From the IMG/VR virus record IMGVR_UViG_2563366829_000015: a DNA stretch of 7,395 bases; one strand, written 5' to 3'. Made by a program: the position numbers and the translations under genes. The stretch's first letter is position 1. Each line of letters begins with the position of its first letter. The notes under the pieces are model-generated. The model did no database searches. It worked only from the letters and a program-made list of their open reading frames with translations, and was not told where the DNA came from. Shown here in pieces: positions 1,422-7,395 of the stretch. Source of the DNA: a virus (lineage: Duplodnaviria; Heunggongvirae; Uroviricota; Caudoviricetes).

Positions 1422-3893
1422 TTAAAAATCAGCCTGATTTGGGATCAGTTTTTGCCAGATAGCTGAAACGTATTTTGCCTGGTAACGGGCGTCATCAAGT
1501 GCATTATGGCGCTCACCTTCGAATGGAATAGCCGTTCTGGCATCGAAGTCTATGGCTTTCCCCAGCTCAACGATTGTGCGTACATCGCGATCGTTGTAGT
1601 AACGCCACGGGCAGGGGATCCCCTGCCGTTCGTATGAACGGCGCAAAATCGTGTTGTCGAAGTTGGCTCCATTTCCCCAAACCTGAACAAAAAATTCACC
1701 GGAGTTTTCGTCGATAAATTCCCGCAATTGTAACAGTGCATCATCTAACGGGATTTCATCGGTCATAATGGCAGATTGCGCTTCGCGTGATTGCTTAAGC
1801 CACCATTTAATGGTGTCCCGATCAATGACCCCGCCAGCAGTTTCCAGATCGATAGTCTTACTAAATTCCGGTCCCATATCTCCGGTTTGCGGATCGAAAA
1901 ATATTGCACCTATTGAGATGATCGGGGCATCAGGATTTTTTCCCATGGTTTCAAGGTCGATCATTAGATGGTCACACGTCCTGCTGGTGGATGTGATTTC
2001 TTGATGACCGTTCACCTTAATTGAGTGATCTGCCGTCTCGCCAGTTTCATTATCGCTATCGTGATGCTGATTGCCGCCAGTGTTCTCCTTGTGTGGATGT
2101 TCAGCGCCTTCCATTTCCTCCGGATCATCTTCCTGAACTTCAGGCTGATACTCTTCATCGAATGTTTCCTGGTATGTTGCGTCGCCCATTACCGCGCCAC
2201 AATCAGGGCAGTTGCCGCCGCCGGTCTGACCGCAGGCGGTGCAGACTTTTTCCACTTCCTGTTGCGCCACTGATTCAGGCTGTTTCGTTTCTGGCTCGTT
2301 TTGTAACGCATTTGGGCTGTTTTGTTCCGCTTTCTGGTCGTTCTGTTCCGTTTCTTGCTGGTTCTGGTTCACAGAATCGCGGGTCTGGTTCCCCTTAACC
2401 CATTTCGGATCATTCGGGTCGCTAATCCCTTCAACAAATTCACCACGTGATACTGCAAGCAGTTCATCGGCGTCAGGCTGGCTGATATTGGCTGCCTGCA
2501 TAATTTTGTTTACTTCGTCAGCGGTAACTTTTACTGACCCTGGTTGTGCGGTCGTGTCAGATGCACCAGTATTTTGTTGTGAACCTGAGTATGTACCGTT
2601 TTTGCGGGCGAAATATTCTTCTTTCGTGATTTCAGTAGCCCCAGCAGACAGCGCCTTATCCAGACCAGAAAGTTTGTTTGCGCGACCGTATTTTTCGCCA
2701 TCCTTGTCGGTGAAGAGGAAGTAGAACGGCCCCTCACGTTCTACAGATGGTTCGACTTCCACTTTGCATTCGGTTTTTTCGTTGTCCGGAATTGCCGTTT
2801 CCACTGCATCAGTTTCTGGTACTGGCGACGAGAGAGTATCAGTTGCGCTCTGATTTGTTCCTTCATCTTCAAACACGCCCTTTGTAGTCAGGTATTCAGT
2901 AATGTATTTGTTCAGTGCCACAGGGTCTTTGTGAATGTCGATCGGACGTTCACGGACAAGGCCAAAAATAGTCTGGCGGTCGTAGCGAAGGGCATCAGGC
3001 TGTTTGCGCATTGATGCCGAGATACGCTTCCAGTCTTCGCGGTCGTTGTCGATAACTTCATTTTTTGCCCAGCGATGGATGCTGCCGTCAATGTTTCCGG
3101 CATCCACATCACCAGGCCAGAGAGCGTAGGCCAGTTCGTCATCCAGTGTTTTCCATGTCTGCTTGTATTCGCGATGAATGGCAGCAATGACCGGGTTGAT
3201 TTTTCCTGTTGAATTTTCAGTGTGCTGTTGATTGGCTCTGGCGCGGGCGAGATCAACAACAGACGTGTATTTTCCGGCTTCCTTGCGTTCACCTTCGCGA
3301 CGTTTTTTCCAGATGCGCATCTCTGCCTGAATTTCGGGCCATTTGGCACCAGGCTTACATTTATGCTTAACCCACCCGATGGCATGCAGCTTAAGCTCCG
3401 GATACATGGCGTTAACTTCTGGCATTTTCATCAACGCTTCAACGATATGTCCGTCGAATGTTGCCATGTCTTCCTGCAACAGTTCCTGCGCGCTAATCAC
3501 CATATCAACGGTGATGTTTTCACATGTGTCGAACTTAACCATGACAGCGTTCTGTACTTCAGGGGCCAGCTTGTCAAAAGTGACGTTCATCGGATCTGAT
3601 TCAGTCTCAACCGGGACAAAGGAAGCAGACGCCTCATCCCAGCGGTTTTCCTGCATATATTCAGCATCCCAGGAATCTAGGGCAGGGCGGGGTATACCGG
3701 GTTTATCCTCGCAGACAAGAAATTTATAAGCGCAGTCCTGAGCAGCCGGATAATGTTCCAGGAATTGCCAGTGAAATTTTGCGCGGGCGCGACGTTCATC
3801 ACCGGCTTCAATGGCAGTGGCTACAGCGACTGCACCTTCTTCCTTTATTGCCTGTTCGTCCGGAATGGCGGCGCAAATAAAGACTTTACTCAT
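1422..3893 (-). CDS. Large multidomain prophage exonuclease, 823 aa: N-terminal region of unknown fold, Q/N/E-rich linker, CxxC-x7-CxxC zinc ribbon, acidic linker, C-terminal DnaQ-like DEDDh 3'-5' exonuclease domain
   Basis: ATG at 3891-3893 (minus) with a GAGGT SD about 9 nt upstream. The C-terminal ~184 aa (nt ~1425-1976) carry the three DEDDh motifs: Exo I MIDLET, Exo II GNGANFD, Exo III HNALDDARYQAKY. The zinc ribbon CTACGQTGGGNCPDCG is at nt 2202-2243. The position, directly upstream of xis-int, is where lambdoid prophages carry exo/recE-type genes. Whether the N-terminal ~500 aa relate to the RecE (exonuclease VIII) N-terminal region cannot be decided without a search. Confidence 0.88.
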   Translation of the reverse strand: MSKVFICAAIPDEQAIKEEGAVAVATAIEAGDERRARAKFHWQFLEHYPAAQDCAYKFLVCEDKPGIPRPALDSWDAEYMQENRWDEASASFVPVETESDPMNVTFDKLAPEVQNAVMVKFDTCENITVDMVISAQELLQEDMATFDGHIVEALMKMPEVNAMYPELKLHAIGWVKHKCKPGAKWPEIQAEMRIWKKRREGERKEAGKYTSVVDLARARANQQHTENSTGKINPVIAAIHREYKQTWKTLDDELAYALWPGDVDAGNIDGSIHRWAKNEVIDNDREDWKRISASMRKQPDALRYDRQTIFGLVRERPIDIHKDPVALNKYITEYLTTKGVFEDEGTNQSATDTLSSPVPETDAVETAIPDNEKTECKVEVEPSVEREGPFYFLFTDKDGEKYGRANKLSGLDKALSAGATEITKEEYFARKNGTYSGSQQNTGASDTTAQPGSVKVTADEVNKIMQAANISQPDADELLAVSRGEFVEGISDPNDPKWVKGNQTRDSVNQNQQETEQNDQKAEQNSPNALQNEPETKQPESVAQQEVEKVCTACGQTGGGNCPDCGAVMGDATYQETFDEEYQPEVQEDDPEEMEGAEHPHKENTGGNQHHDSDNETGETADHSIKVNGHQEITSTSRTCDHLMIDLETMGKNPDAPIISIGAIFFDPQTGDMGPEFSKTIDLETAGGVIDRDTIKWWLKQSREAQSAIMTDEIPLDDALLQLREFIDENSGEFFVQVWGNGANFDNTILRRSYERQGIPCPWRYYNDRDVRTIVELGKAIDFDARTAIPFEGERHNALDDARYQAKYVSAIWQKLIPNQADF

Positions 3894-4545: not shown

Positions 4546-4598
4546 GGGCGGCAGAGCAGTCACGGAGTAAAACTGATACCGCCAAATGTCACCAGAAA
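4546..4598 (-). ncRNA. dicF: DicF small regulatory RNA (Hfq-dependent sRNA processed from the dicB operon transcript; represses ftsZ and other mRNAs)
   Basis: The minus strand reads 5'-TTTCTGGTGACATTTGGCGGTATCAGTTTTACTCCGTGACTGCTCTGCCGCCC-3' followed by T5 (plus 4541-4545 AAAAA). This matches the 53-nt DicF RNA as I recall it, with possibly one substitution, and it sits ~180 nt upstream of dicB. The exact ends are taken from memory of the K-12 RNA and could be off by a few nt. Confidence 0.8.
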
Positions 4599-5973: not shown

Positions 5974-6129
5974 TCACTCACCTGAGTTTCTTTCCAGCCA
6001 GCGACGGGCACCATTTTCGGTTTTAAACGTTTTGCTTTTGGTATACGTCATCGCGGTGAATGTGCCGTCCTGGTTGGGAAACACGCCGTACACCAGAGAT
6101 TCGTTGTTGCCAAGCTCGATAGTATCCAT
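5974..6129 (-). CDS. ydfA: YdfA-like small protein, 51 aa (first ORF of the early-left operon)
   Basis: Found by manual translation: MDTIELGNNESLVYGVFPNQDGTFTAMTYTKSKTFKTENGARRWLERNSGE. ATG at 6127-6129 (minus) with a GAGG SD 5 nt upstream. The 51-aa size and first position downstream of the repressor-proximal promoter match Qin YdfA / Rac YdaF. Confidence 0.6.
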   Translation of the reverse strand: MDTIELGNNESLVYGVFPNQDGTFTAMTYTKSKTFKTENGARRWLERNSGE

Positions 6130-6200
6130 GCTGACCTCATTTCCCCTTAACGCCGGGTGGCGGAACTAAAACCTACAGCGCCGTGCTGTTCTTGATAGAA

Positions 6201-6229
6201 ATATTAGTAACGCGGATATTTTAAGTCAA
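6201..6229 (-). promoter_or_regulatory. Sigma70 promoter of the early-left (ydfABC-dicF-dicB-type) operon, PL-like
   Basis: On the minus strand: -35 TTGACT (6224-6229), 17-nt spacer, -10 TAATAT (6201-6206). An AT-rich UP-like region lies upstream (6230-6320), and the predicted TSS is ~65 nt upstream of the ydfA-like ATG. The layout is nearly identical to the plus-strand promoter at 6893-6921. Confidence 0.5.
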
Positions 6230-6326
6230 CAGTATGGCGTATGATATTTTTGATTTGGTAACTATGTAAATGTTTTTTCAAGGGAAAAATATTAGTTATA
6301 CAGCTGATTTGCAGAAGTTATGGCAC

Positions 6327-6357
6327 AAAAAAACCGACTAAGACGTCGGTTTTTTTG
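6327..6357 (-). terminator. Bidirectional rho-independent terminator downstream of the repressor gene
   Basis: Plus strand reads A7-ACCGAC-taagac-GTCGGT-T7: a perfect 6-bp stem with a 6-nt loop flanked by A and T runs. It starts ~25 nt after the repressor stop (6383), so it insulates the downstream early-left promoter from repressor read-through. Confidence 0.7.
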
Positions 6358-6382
6358 TTGTGGATGGGGTAGTGAGCGGTGG

Positions 6383-6844
6383 CTACTGGTTACGTTTCTT
6401 TAGTGCCAGCATGTTCTCGAAGGCTTCCTCGTAGAGCTTGTTTAGTCCACGTAGCTGGTTAAGGAGTTTGGCTTTTTCTGACGCAGGTAGAATCTCGAAG
6501 AGGTTAAGTAACTCTGCCTGTTCTTCATTGACCAGCCTCCATCCTTTGCCTGAAAAGTTATCATCATAAGTATCTGATGATCTTACATAATTCATTAAGT
6601 CTTTAAGGTCTTCTCGAATGTCCTCTGGTTTTACCTTTAACAGAGCCGCAAATTTTAGCGCAGCGTCGGTATTTACCGGTATCTTGCCGTTCAGATACTG
6701 GCTAACGGTGCCTTGAGATTCGAATCCCAACAACTCAGCCGCCAGCTCTTGAGTCAGCTTCAGCTCTTTTTTTCTTGCATTCCATGCGGCTTTTAAATTC
6801 TTGCTCGCTTCTGGAGTTGCAATCACTTCGCGTGTTTTTTTCAT
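6383..6844 (-). CDS. Prophage immunity repressor, DicA/RacR-type HTH (XRE-family) protein, 153 aa
   Basis: ATG at 6842-6844 (minus). N-terminal HTH_XRE-like segment (LKLTQELAAELLGFESQGTVSQYLNG); C-terminal helical region (AELLNLFEILPASEKAKLL) with no S24 peptidase Ser/Lys autocleavage motif, as in DicA/RacR-type repressors rather than lambda CI. It is divergent from a cro-like gene and co-directional with the operon it would repress. No SD is visible upstream, so the mRNA may be leaderless. Confidence 0.85.
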   Translation of the reverse strand: MKKTREVIATPEASKNLKAAWNARKKELKLTQELAAELLGFESQGTVSQYLNGKIPVNTDAALKFAALLKVKPEDIREDLKDLMNYVRSSDTYDDNFSGKGWRLVNEEQAELLNLFEILPASEKAKLLNQLRGLNKLYEEAFENMLALKKRNQ

Positions 6845-6850
6845 ACATAG

Positions 6851-6878
6851 AGTTTATTTGTTTTACCAATATTATCAA
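6851..6878 (-). promoter_or_regulatory. Putative PRM-like promoter for the repressor gene (leaderless transcript)
   Basis: On the minus strand: -35 TTGATA (6873-6878), 16-nt spacer, -10 TAAACT (6851-6856), ending ~6 nt before the repressor ATG with no SD. It sits back-to-back with the PR-like -35, as in repressor/cro switches. Weak hexamers, so low confidence. Confidence 0.3.
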
Positions 6879-6892
6879 AGATAGTCTGGCTA

Positions 6893-6921
6893 TTGATCTT
6901 TAAAATTAGCGGGGCTAATAT
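6893..6921 (+). promoter_or_regulatory. PR-like sigma70 promoter for the cro-like gene; probable operator region
   Basis: -35 TTGATC (6893-6898), 17-nt spacer, -10 TAATAT (6916-6921), about 30 nt upstream of the ATG at 6952. The spacer and -10 region closely resemble the minus-strand promoter at 6201-6229. Confidence 0.45.
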
Positions 6922-6951
6922 TTGCTCGAGGCATAACGTAGAAGGTTGGCT

Positions 6952-7188
6952 ATGAACTTAAGAGACTATTTAAAAGAGAAACATATCACCCAGCTACAGT
7001 TTGGGAAGCTAACGGGTTTATCTCAGGTGCATGTAAGTCGAGTGCTGGGGGGCTATGAAAGATTCAGCCCTGAAAAAGCATTACGTGTTGCTGAAGTAAC
7101 GAATTTCGAGGTTACACCTCATGAACTCCGGCCTGATATTTACCCGAATCCAACCGACGGCTTACCTGTTGGATTCAAGGCTAACTGA
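6952..7188 (+). CDS. Cro/DicC/YdaS-like HTH regulator, 78 aa, 3' end abutting or interrupted by an IS element
   Basis: ATG at 6952 with a GAAGG SD 6 nt upstream; the ORF track's TTG at 6946 is less likely. HTH-like segment ITQLQFGKLTGLSQVHVSRVL. It is divergent from the repressor. The stop codon TGA at 7186-7188 coincides with the first three bases of the IS terminal inverted repeat. Confidence 0.75.
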   Translation: MNLRDYLKEKHITQLQFGKLTGLSQVHVSRVLGGYERFSPEKALRVAEVTNFEVTPHELRPDIYPNPTDGLPVGFKAN

Positions 7189-7395
7189 ACCGCCCCGGGT
7201 TTCCTGGAGAGTGTTTTATCTGTGAACTCAGGCTGCCAGATCATCGTTTCCGATGGAAGCATAATAAGCTTTTTCTGCTTCTGCCGGAGGAGTATGGCCC
7301 AGCCTTTCCAGCAATCGTCGATTGTTATACCAGTCCACCCACGTGAGTGTGGCCAGTTCCACTTCTGCACGGTTTTTCCAGCTCTTACGGTGTAT
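7186..7395 (-). mobile_element. IS3-family insertion sequence (IS629/IS1203-like), partial: right terminal inverted repeat plus 3' end of the transposase gene; continues beyond the window
   Basis: Plus strand from 7186 reads TGAACCGCCCCGGGTTTCCTGGAGAGTG, which matches my recollection of the terminal inverted repeat of the IS629/IS1203/IS3411 group (IS3-family TG...CA termini). Directly inward is a transposase C-terminus on the minus strand. Confidence 0.75.
7228..7395 (-). CDS. IS3-family transposase (OrfB / rve integrase-core) C-terminal fragment, 5'-truncated by the window edge
   Basis: Manual minus-strand translation gives ...SWKNRAEVELATLTWVDWYNNRRLLERLGHTPPAEAEKAYYASIGNDDLAA* with the stop at 7228-7230. 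This is the conserved C-terminal end of IS3-family transposases. The frame has no Met in the window, so it is absent from the ORF track; the track's 7140-7370 ORF is a different frame. Confidence 0.8.
   Translation of the reverse strand: MHRKSWKNRAEVELATLTWVDWYNNRRLLERLGHTPPAEAEKAYYASIGNDDLAA

Follow-up and report, generated by a model that had tools for sequence, protein, structure and literature searches.

Candidate TATTAG-N5-CTAATA operators at a lambda-plan immunity switch of a Rac/Qin-like Escherichia coli prophage

The operators of phage lambda have a 6-N5-6 geometry (1LMB complex). In the Qin prophage of E. coli K-12, repression of dicBp by DicA has been established experimentally and operators at both promoters have been published (PMC10448788, PMC3441716), while derepression runs via the antirepressor Rem and not via SOS cleavage (PMC10448788). 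The 7,395-nt stretch of viral DNA that we analysed (hereafter the window) comes from a Rac/Qin-like lambdoid prophage of E. coli and covers its early-left and immunity region. Its control region is an ordinary on/off switch of lambda-like plan, an arrangement that is already familiar, in which one repressor gene is flanked by two outward-facing early promoters; the new part is that comparing related loci has yielded a putative operator sequence. Our literature searches found no publication on its 153-aa repressor or on the regulation of phage Rac-SA53. The module governs dicB and DicF, two prophage products with effects on the host: they stop cells from dividing and change their susceptibility to phages.

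The genes of the window are ordered int–xis–exo–ydfD–dicB–DicF–ydfCBA, followed by the repressor gene and a divergent YdaS-type cro gene (Table 1). According to the RefSeq annotation of identical DNA, the PL operon runs leftward as ydfA-ydfB-ydfC-DicF-dicB-ydfD-exo-xis-int, with Pfam matches to DicB and DUF1482 downstream of ydfA. The repressor and cro-like genes lie 107 bp apart and both encode an HTH_3 domain; the original prediction had already named ydfA, a 153-aa HTH repressor and a cro-like gene, in agreement with the list of open reading frames, Pfam and the RefSeq annotation. The cro-like protein scores 31.4 bits against Pfam YdaS_toxin (cut-off 30) and is identical at 78/78 residues to a 91-aa protein of strain ABU 83972. 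Homology to uninterrupted prophages stops at 7185, the stop codon of the cut gene comes from IS629, and the IS629 part is 100% identical to IS629 ORF2 regions of Shigella and E. coli plasmids. In intact relatives the cro-like gene is followed by ydaT (cII-like), which the insertion cuts off in the present strain.

Roughly 3% of the complete E. coli genomes have the module next to ydfA, and it is also found in a near full-length prophage of strain ABU 83972 and in phage Rac-SA53, which was deposited as a complete genome. Since Rac-SA53 carries the same module including PL beside different left-operon genes, PL and its candidate operator belong to the immunity module. A scan of genome contigs yielded three loci only, and the useful comparison set came from viral contigs and exact-protein look-ups. 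About 90 related loci were compared; variation was read from 43 distinct natural variants of the module and site density from 67 distinct loci. Four diverged repressor lineages are distinguished, G1 to G4 (E. coli, Salmonella-type, Hafnia and Serratia), of which the Salmonella-type lineage is 70% identical.

Table 1. Positions of genes, promoters, candidate operators and other signals in the window.
Feature	Position	Strand	Description
DicF RNA	4546-4597		77 bits
ydfA (DUF1391)	5974..6129	-	first gene of PL operon; ORF list, Pfam DUF1391 7e-28
Predicted PL leader	6130..6194	-	start inferred near 6194
PL-type promoter	6201..6229	-	TTGACT (6229-6224), 17 nt, TAATAT (6206-6201); sequence, scan 9/12
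OL1, candidate operator	6202..6218	.	TATTAG TAACG CGGATA; over PL spacer and -10; 2 mismatches to dyad in the 12-base arms
B2, lone perfect half-site	6287..6306	. (CTAATATTT on minus)	third CTAATATTT copy; TATTAG TTATA CAGCTG; 88 bp from OL1
Bidirectional intrinsic terminator	6327..6357	.	A7-CCGAC-loop-GTCGG-T7; T-run on both strands
Repressor, 153 aa	6383..6844	-	lambda-cI-like N-terminal HTH, DicA-like C-terminal helices
PRM-like promoter	6851..6878	-	TTGATA (6878-6873), 16 nt, TAAACT (6856-6851); scan 9/12
OR3, candidate operator	6855..6871	.	TATTTG TTTTA CCAATA; inside PRM spacer and start of its -10
OR2, weak candidate	6879..6895	.	AGATAG TCTGG CTATTG; only inner ATAG/CTAT symmetric
PR-type promoter	6893..6921	+	TTGATC (6893-6898), 17 nt, TAATAT (6916-6921); sequence; start inferred near 6928
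OR1, candidate operator	6904..6920	.	AATTAG CGGGG CTAATA; over PR spacer and -10; inner 15 bp a perfect dyad
cro-like gene, YdaS-family HTH	6952..7188	+	Pfam YdaS_toxin, HTH_3; cut after codon 78/91 by IS629
IS629 end (IS3 family), inserted in cro-like gene	7186..7395	-	sequence identity, RefSeq 'IS3 family transposase'

The N-terminal domain of the repressor resembles that of lambda cI in both sequence and predicted fold. A phmmer search of the PDB matched it to 3kz3 and 1lmb (E = 3e-4 to 9e-4), and the ten best Foldseek matches of its AlphaFold model were all lambda cI N-terminal domains, nine of them with TM scores of 0.71-0.83 and the tenth, a full-length hybrid repressor chain, with 0.36. 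Superposition on 1lmb gave a TM score of 0.75 and an rmsd of 2.3 Å. Model confidence is good for the N-terminal domain (pLDDT 80-92) and low for the C-terminal domain, and dimerisation of the repressor is assumed. No S24 peptidase was detected, as Pfam gives HTH_3 and HTH_31 only. At the C-terminus, and there only, BLASTP aligns the protein with DicA (38% identity over 42 aa, E = 8e-6) and PHROG 5736 matches residues 103-152, whereas the N-terminus gave no BLASTP alignment with DicA and the protein showed no significant BLASTP similarity to RacR (E = 26). The repressor gene has a PRM-like promoter whose -10 occupies positions -12 to -7 from the A of the ATG, with no Shine-Dalgarno sequence upstream. 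A TAnnnT hexamer is found at precisely these positions in all four lineages and the whole PRM block is invariant in the 43 variants. Given where the -10 sits, the repressor mRNA is probably leaderless.

As originally proposed, the early promoters PL and PR have hexamers separated by 17-nt spacers, AAAAT and GCG are present in both spacers, and CTAATATTT surrounds both -10 hexamers. A simple promoter scan listed PL (9/12) and left out PR, which at 8/12 falls under its threshold. The PL hexamers are invariant among the 43 variants and stand in register with Qin dicBp (TTGACC-17-TAATCT) upon alignment; those of PR are kept in G1, and TTGATC-17-TAATAT recurs at the same place in G2 and G3. To call the two promoters near-duplicates was an overstatement: their spacers agree at 9/17 positions (permutation p = 0.012, with about 2.7% of local 17-mers matching equally well) and the aligned promoters at 25/45. 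Among the variants AAAAT and CTAATATTT remain conserved, whereas the shared GCG is a coincidence because it lies within the 5 bp that vary most. A stronger-looking promoter-like sequence, TTTACA-18-TATCAT (6270-6241, 10/12), was rejected: both of its hexamers are altered in Rac-SA53 and it falls in the most polymorphic stretch.

Downstream of PL, the discriminator (6195-6200) differs between strains and the sequence that follows it is invariant. The PL leader aligns with the leaders of Qin, Rac and G2, so that it is common to heteroimmune Rac, Qin and Salmonella-type prophages, and the mosaic breakpoint is the start codon of the first PL gene. A structured RNA was not apparent in this leader: its minimum free energy is no better than that of shuffled sequences (z = +1.2), and it forms no more than a 4-bp hairpin, in which one change from the Qin sequence is compensatory. 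The terminator between the repressor gene and PL, by comparison, folds far more stably than expected (-20.7 kcal/mol, z = -5.9, with 0/200 shuffles as good). It lies where the original prediction had put it and is conserved in the variants; in G2 and G3 another hairpin takes its place. A candidate plus-strand small RNA at 6287-6361 was discarded because its Rfam match to STnc370 (30.5 bits) lies under the gathering score of 54 and is probably driven by the terminator. The STnc370 consensus itself matched chromosomal contigs of Salmonella as well as two short phage records that lack annotation, and an immunity context was not seen around these matches.

From the comparison of about 90 related loci, the predicted operator is a lambda-like dyad of 17 bp, TATTAG-N5-CTAATA. 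Its candidate copies OL1 and OR1 are in the same register: each begins at position 6 of the spacer and takes in the first five bases of the -10. OR1 has no mismatch to ATTAG-N5-CTAAT; its arms are fixed, all five central bases vary between strains (minor-allele counts 16, 7, 3, 10 and 1), and a site of its type lies at -67/-68 from the repressor ATG in all lineages. OL1 likewise has fixed arms around a variable centre (counts 0, 5, 1, 9 and 21) and equivalents over PL in G2, G3 and G4, though its left arm is poor (TATCCG, 4/6). G1-G4 and the Stx2a phage Lyz12581Vzw all have a site corresponding to OR3 whose midpoint is at -19 relative to the repressor ATG, and the central bases of OR3 are invariant among the variants. 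A weak OR2 candidate, centred 24-25 bp from both OR3 and OR1, matches the dyad at 7/12 positions and its 15-bp form with three mismatches; the corresponding position in Lyz12581Vzw reads CAATAG-TCTAG-CTATTT, and no equivalent was recognisable in G2-G4. Near PL we found no further site with up to two mismatches, and none at lambda-like spacing from OL1 that would correspond to OL2 or OL3. No stretch is more polymorphic than the DNA 24 bp upstream of OL1. G2 has a possible second PL site 34 bp upstream (TATCAA-N5-TGCATA) without a counterpart in G1. The half-site B2 has only three mismatches to the 15-bp dyad and is largely conserved in the variants.

The TTAC(N)AATATT motif that had been suggested as the shared operator element fares less well. 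It is present at 6199-6211 (minus strand) and 6863-6874, but 6913-6924 reads GGCTAATATTTG, of which only C-N-AATATT matches. Set against the dyad, the motif covers the promoter-proximal half-site and its AT-rich flank, but its TTAC is part of the non-conserved dyad centre. The broader proposal that a single repressor has operators over both early promoters gains comparative support, as the same type of dyad is kept at the same register in four diverged lineages.

In the window as a whole, TATTAG-N5-CTAATA has three matches with up to two mismatches where 0.18 are expected, a number reached by 0/200 shuffles, and all three lie at PL, PRM and PR. When 5-Nx-5 palindromes were enumerated without bias, with the condition that they occur in both regions, ATTAG-N5 came out on top. 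The 15-bp form ATTAG-N5-CTAAT is not enriched window-wide (4 matches against 3.0 expected with up to two mismatches, 26 against 27.7 with up to three), so that what is informative is limited to the 17-bp form and to where the matches fall. When every 6-N(0-8)-6 palindrome of the two regulatory regions is counted, TATTAG-N5 does no better than share first place with T-rich patterns, and we claim no significance for the single sequence because 35% of locally shuffled regulatory regions hold some 6-Nx-6 palindrome with at least three sites. Across the 43 variants, 9/20 central columns are variable as opposed to 3/48 arm columns (Fisher p = 4e-4, a post hoc test since these data had also served to derive the dyad), and for OR1 and OL1 alone the figures are 7/10 and 2/24. 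Conservation of the right arm is confounded with promoter function at OL1 and OR1, where this arm falls on the -10 hexamer. The Salmonella-type lineage shows the same pattern of arm and centre variation; all four lineages have sites over PL and, counted from the repressor ATG, at -67/-68 and -19, with a different centre in each; and site density in the 67 distinct loci is 46 times higher in regulatory segments than elsewhere. The natural variation leaves the arms fixed and the centre free and amounts to a ready-made mutational scan.

We consider it likely that the region is a lambda-plan immunity switch of a Rac/Qin-like prophage whose repressor acts on TATTAG-N5-CTAATA sites. It is rather unlikely that the conserved blocks are only promoter elements (the -35, an A-rich proximal spacer and an extended -10 context) and that the repressor binds elsewhere, for instance to a direct repeat such as TTAC(N)AATATT or CTAATATTT including the third copy at 6287-6299. 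Such a reading can draw on the occurrence of CTAATATTT three times and CCAATATTA once, confined to the two regulatory regions, on the coincidence of the right arms with the -10, on palindrome statistics that are not significant family-wise, and on the conservation of B2 although it is no dyad. Yet TTAC falls in a strain-variable stretch at OL1 and is absent at OR1, and the Salmonella-type OR3 lacks AATATT and has the perfect dyad TATGAA-N5-TTCATA instead. The distal spacer halves (ATTAG, ATCCG and ATGAA) are conserved 10 bp away from the -10, where sigma-70 spacers are normally free, and dyads are what a lambda-cI-type domain binds.

The sites might also serve mainly the YdaS-type Cro-like protein or the cII-like YdaT, with the 153-aa protein acting elsewhere or indirectly. 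Cro of lambda indeed uses the cI operators too, and our data assign the dyads to no single protein; operator sharing by Cro is, however, compatible with the switch that we propose, and the half-site geometry fits the lambda cI N-terminal fold of the 153-aa protein. Moreover, the Stx2a phage has the same sites and, among the parts compared, shares only the repressor N-terminal domain (50%); its neighbouring minus-strand gene is annotated only as a transcriptional repressor. We regard a primary role of Cro or YdaT as very unlikely. That the promoters resemble each other as a decaying relic without present function is barely credible, even though IS629 cuts cro and separates the right operon in the present strain and such prophages are often cryptic. 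The repressor ORF is intact with 2% variable columns as opposed to 14% of noncoding columns, dozens of strains show no change in the regulatory blocks, and the module is carried by the complete phage genome of Rac-SA53 and the near full-length ABU 83972 prophage. In Qin, derepression of dicB and DicF is toxic (PMC10448788), so that retaining the repressor makes sense.

Under the favoured model of a repressor acting on the 17-bp dyads, a dimer of the 153-aa protein would contact the arms and leave the central 5 bp free. Occupation of OL1 would shut off PL and silence the operon from ydfABC through DicF, dicB, ydfD, exo and xis to int, and OR1, over the same part of PR, would do so for the cro-like/ydaT/replication operon. 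Binding to OR3 within PRM would provide negative autoregulation at high repressor levels, and the weak OR2 may fill cooperatively, given its lambda-like spacing of 24-25 bp. PRM transcripts would be halted by the terminator ahead of the toxic dicB/DicF operon. Because the repressor lacks an S24 protease and has a DicA-like C-terminal end, induction is predicted to be independent of RecA-mediated cleavage, an antirepressor being one conceivable route, by analogy with Rem and DicA; the annotation of the related ABU 83972 prophage contains no antirepressor. The analysis itself shows the anatomy, the pattern of conservation, the homology of the protein and the positional homology to dicBp, and binding, transcription starts, cooperativity and the induction route are predictions. 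With the cro-like gene interrupted and the PR operon split by IS629, the switch of the present strain is probably locked in the repressed state. Overall, the lambda-like immunity architecture of the original prediction is supported by the cI-like repressor N-terminus, the divergent cro-like gene, the alignment with dicBp, the terminator and the dyads, and a concrete operator model (OL1, OR1 and OR3) makes the immunity type testable and the immunity group predictable from sequence.

More tentatively, and with some doubt on our part, the repressor may be a natural chimera of a lambda-cI-type DNA-binding domain and a DicA-type C-terminal domain, with specificity and induction route exchanged as separate modules. 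Tight silencing of PL and its toxic dicB/DicF operon might need looping between OL1 and OR, B2 or the leader conserved among heteroimmune prophages, since PL has a single and rather poor operator; the loop would span only about 650-700 bp. Elsewhere, namely in Stx2a phages, the lambda-cI-type domain is found fused to an S24 protease. The DicA-type C-terminal domain is that of SOS-independent repressors controlled by antirepressors.

Among described systems, dicC-dicA-dicBp of Qin in E. coli K-12 has the same order, with a divergent cro-like gene and short repressor gene, a terminator and a PL-type promoter ahead of ydfA-ydfB-ydfC-DicF-dicB-ydfD. PL is in register with dicBp and the leader is shared, the present PL is predicted to be repressed, and both repressors lack S24 and have their C-terminal domain in common. 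The N-terminal DNA-binding domains, by contrast, are unrelated at the BLAST level, the cro gene is of YdaS type and not DicC, and no match to the DicA-type operator (Oc, TTGTTAGTCATAACTAACAA) exists in the window at up to three mismatches. The present element and Qin are heteroimmune because the predicted operators here are TATTAG-N5-CTAATA.

With racR-ydaS-ydaT of the K-12 Rac prophage, the locus shares a cro-like protein of the YdaS family (32% identical to YdaS), ydaT as the next gene in intact relatives and the PL leader. PL and PR of Rac, as read from its sequence, also resemble each other and contain repeated repressor-type motifs (GCCTAAT). The repressor, however, has no similarity to RacR, the operator motif is another one, and the left operon is of dicB type instead of kilR/sieB type. 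Also close are related Stx2a phages and the Stx2a phage Lyz12581Vzw (Oslovirus). The cI of Lyz12581Vzw is 50% identical over the N-terminal 76 aa, and the equivalent positions of its cI-cro region read TATTAG-CTTAC-CTGATT, CAATAG-TCTAG-CTATTT and TATTTG-TGTTG-CTAATA, with the OR1/OR3-type sites 47 bp apart. Unlike the repressor described here, this cI has 239 aa, a Shine-Dalgarno sequence and, at its C-terminus, an S24 (LexA-type) domain; its downstream genes encode a methyltransferase and a restriction function, and no adjacent PL or ydfA was seen.

Lambda itself shares the cI-fold N-terminal domain with detectable sequence similarity and the 17-bp 6-N5-6 dyads predicted here. OR1 and OR3 are 49 bp apart compared to 47 in lambda, with the middle site at 24-25 bp; one site lies over PR, one over PRM and an operator over PL, and the repressor mRNA is predicted to be leaderless as well. 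Differences to lambda are the lack of an S24 autocleavage domain, the half-site (TATTAG and not TATCAC), a single OL site found here as opposed to three in lambda and Qin along with a weak OR2, ydfA and not N as first PL gene, and about 150 bp with a terminator instead of rexAB between the repressor gene and PL. The switch adds nothing conceptual to the lambda and Qin paradigms and is a new, heteroimmune example of this known lambda/Qin type.

The 7.4-kb window covers the left arm of an E. coli lambdoid prophage together with its immunity region, and segment 5800-7185 is 100% identical to prophages in strains ABU 83972, 042, VR50 and others. The minus-strand order is integrase, excisionase, an 823-aa exonuclease, ydfD (DUF1482), dicB, the DicF RNA (Rfam, 77 bits), two unnamed ORFs, ydfC, ydfB, ydfA (DUF1391) and, across an intergenic gap, the gene of a 153-aa HTH protein, the repressor. 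Between DicF and ydfC, two overlapping ORFs of 105 and 133 aa gave no hit in Pfam; in ABU 83972, the RefSeq annotation has shorter hypothetical proteins there. In uninterrupted relatives, the cro-like gene is followed 3' by ydaT, replication genes, a Q-type antiterminator, lysis genes and head and tail genes. Here an end of IS629 (IS3 family) interrupts it past codon 78 of 91, removing the last 13 codons, providing a TGA stop and cutting the rightward promoter PR off from both ydaT and the genes for replication. This junction is shared by just two of the 15 complete genomes listed, MS 196-1 and M15, and the window's prophage is probably locked and defective.

Features of the immunity region and related operator candidates
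Feature	Position	Strand	Description
ORF, 105 aa	4895-5212	plus	between DicF and ydfC
ORF, 133 aa	5172-5573	minus	between DicF and ydfC
PL leader	6130-6194	minus	AACAGCACGGCGCTGT ... AGTTCCGCCACCCGGCGTTAAGGGGA
Promoter-like site	6192-6220	plus	TTGATA-17-GATATT
PL (leftward, ydfA)	6229-6201	minus	TTGACT-17-TAATAT
OL1 (putative)	6202-6218		over PL; 17-mer match
B2 half-site	6287-6306		TATTAG TTATA CAGCTG
Terminator	6327-6357	both	hairpin
PRM-like (repressor)	6878-6851	minus	TTGATA-16-TAAACT; -10 at -12..-7 from A of repressor ATG
OR3 (putative)	6855-6871		inside PRM spacer; 17-mer match
OR2 (weak candidate)	6879-6895		CAATAG-CCAGA-CTATCT
PR (rightward, cro-like)	6893-6921	plus	TTGATC-17-TAATAT
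OR1 (putative)	6904-6920		over PR; 17-mer match
cro-like gene	start 6952	plus	YdaS-family HTH
IS629 end	7186-7395		inside cro-like gene
G2 OR1			over PR; TATTAA-CTATA-CTAATT
G2 OR3			PRM; TATGAA-CTGTA-TTCATA, perfect dyad
G2 OL1			over PL; TATGAA-TATAA-CTAATA
G3 OR1			over PR; TATTAC-TTATA-TTCATA
G3 OR3			PRM; TATTAG-TTTTA-TTCATA
G3 OL1			over PL; TATGAA-TATAA-ATAATA

Both early promoters lie exactly where the original prediction had placed them, with AAAAT and GCG in both spacers and CTAATATTT at both -10s, though a consensus promoter scan lists PL at 9/12 and PR, at 8/12, falls under its threshold. Their likeness is real but more modest than had been claimed: 25/45 positions agree in the promoter alignment and 9/17 within the spacers, a spacer value with a permutation p of 0.012 that 2.7% of local 17-mers equal. 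The hairpin between PL and the repressor gene is indeed a strong terminator: it folds at -20.7 kcal/mol (z = -5.9) and has a U-run on either strand. A promoter-like site on the plus strand, opposite to PL and overlapping it, mirrors the PRM/OR3 layout; a transcript begun there would reach the bidirectional terminator (6357) after ~130 nt, and its sole support comes from Rfam matches under the gathering score, with 30.5 bits against 54 for STnc370 and 21.7-24.5 bits against 80 for IS128.

Comparative evidence supports the proposed immunity switch, with a different operator. The direct motif TTAC(N)AATATT, previously suggested as the shared element, is found at two of its three sites, with only C-N-AATATT matching at 6913-6924; in its place, the DNA supports a 17-bp lambda-like dyad as putative operator. 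We compared ~90 loci encoding the window's repressor or relatives, comprising the window's own E. coli lineage G1 (56 loci, repressor DNA at least 95% identical, with 43 distinct versions of the complete module), the mostly Salmonella-type G2 (~29 loci, repressor 68-70% identical), G3 from Hafnia (71%) and G4 from Serratia (58%). Variable noncoding columns are unevenly spread in the G1 alignment: all five bases of the PR centre CCCCG (6910-6914) vary (minor-allele counts 16, 7, 3, 10 and 1 of 43) between fixed arms that form the perfect dyad ATTAG-N5-CTAAT, and in the same register at PL, ATCCG and CTAAT are fixed around a variable CGTTA. Extended by one base per arm, the 17-mer TATTAG-N5-CTAATA has three matches with at most 2 mismatches in the window versus 0.18 expected, a number that 0/200 shuffles reach. 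Over four proposed sites, 9/20 centre versus 3/48 arm columns vary (Fisher p = 4e-4; noncoding background 14%), for a pattern drawn from the same data as its statistics and with promoter-proximal arms whose overlap with the -10 limits the statistics of dyad conservation. When every 6-Nx-6 palindrome in both regulatory regions is enumerated, the family-wise result is not significant, and a 15-bp dyad version is not enriched across the window. The OR3 centre is invariant, and only one site, with a poor distal arm, was found at OL.

Replication across lineages is stronger sequence evidence for the putative operators than these window and G1 statistics. The degenerate dyad TATKAR-N5-YTMATA recurs at the same positions in 4/4 lineages: two sites lie at -67/-68 and -19 relative to the repressor's ATG, and another covers the PL-type promoter, 153-175 bp beyond the repressor stop. 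Arms are conserved and centres differ; fixed arms and a free centre also characterize variation within G2. Site density in regulatory segments is 46x that elsewhere (67 distinct loci), and the heteroimmune Qin and Rac loci of K-12 show no such clustering. Stx2a phage Lyz12581Vzw has only two matches with at most 2 mismatches in 5.2 kb, both in its cI-cro region and 47 bp apart. Its middle site CAATAG-TCTAG-CTATTT matches a window sequence that we therefore list as weak OR2, centred 24 bp from OR3 and 25 bp from OR1, and not clearly visible in G2-G4.

A third CTAATATTT copy (6287-6299, minus) lies between terminator and PL within B2, a perfect single half-site 88 bp from OL1 that also forms ATTAG-N8-CTGAT and is kept in 43 G1 variants; B2 might serve the repressor as an auxiliary site or contribute to an RNA hairpin on the plus strand.

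The deposited phage Rac-SA53 shares the repressor (99.3%) and its flanking DNA, minus-strand promoter and leader included; homology runs as far as the first leftward gene's start codon and gives way to different genes there. This places the leftward promoter inside the immunity module, as expected of PL/OL. The PL leader is common to prophages with unrelated repressors (the window, the Salmonella-type lineage, Rac K-12 and Qin K-12; L002 2935-3008, L003 3455-3500 and L062 about 3135-3200 among the compared loci), and its mosaic breakpoint is exactly that start codon. Just 5' of the SD, it carries a 4-bp hairpin, CGCC-ACCC-GGCG, in which one C:G pair is T:A in Qin (CGCT-ACCCC-AGCG), a compensatory change; the whole leader folds no better than shuffles.

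By Pfam, the repressor has HTH_3 only, without an S24 peptidase. Its best solved-structure matches by sequence are the lambda cI N-terminal domain (E about 3e-4), as are all top 10 Foldseek hits of the confident N-terminal part of its AlphaFold model (1lmb, TM 0.75, rmsd 2.3 Å). Lambda operators are 17-bp dyads of 6-N5-6 layout (TATCAC-N5-GTGATA type), as in the 1LMB complex, and such a modelled fold would predict the very dyad geometry that the DNA suggests by itself. Over its N-terminal 76 aa, the repressor shares 50% identity with an S24-type cI of Stx2a phages, and a C-terminal stretch of 42 residues is DicA-like (38%, E = 8e-6), such that the repressor looks like a domain mosaic from its sequence (compared regions: window 6383-6844, L005 2459-3178, L002 2435-2842). 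Its ATG has no Shine-Dalgarno sequence upstream, and a TAnnnT hexamer occupies -12..-7 in all four lineages; we infer that its mRNA is leaderless, like the one made from lambda PRM. From within the PRM spacer, OR3 would mediate repressor autoregulation.

The closest known system is dicC-dicA-dicBp of Qin (K-12), with the same gene order, a shared leader and dicBp in register with PL (TTGACC-17-TAATCT, with a DicA-type site in the Qin spacer). There, DicA represses dicBp, operators lie at both promoters, and control is SOS-independent and involves the antirepressor Rem (PMC10448788). A search of the window found no site of the type of the DicA operator Oc, TTGTTAGTCATAACTAACAA (PMC3441716), which together with its different DNA-binding domain makes the window heteroimmune to Qin. 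In Rac K-12, the PL and PR copies also share repeated GCCTAAT motifs around TTGACA, so that early promoters resembling each other are the rule for this group. The S24-type cI of Lyz12581Vzw shares only its N-terminal domain with the window's repressor. Taken together, these comparisons support the locus as a new heteroimmune version of a well-known immunity plan, with predicted operator binding.
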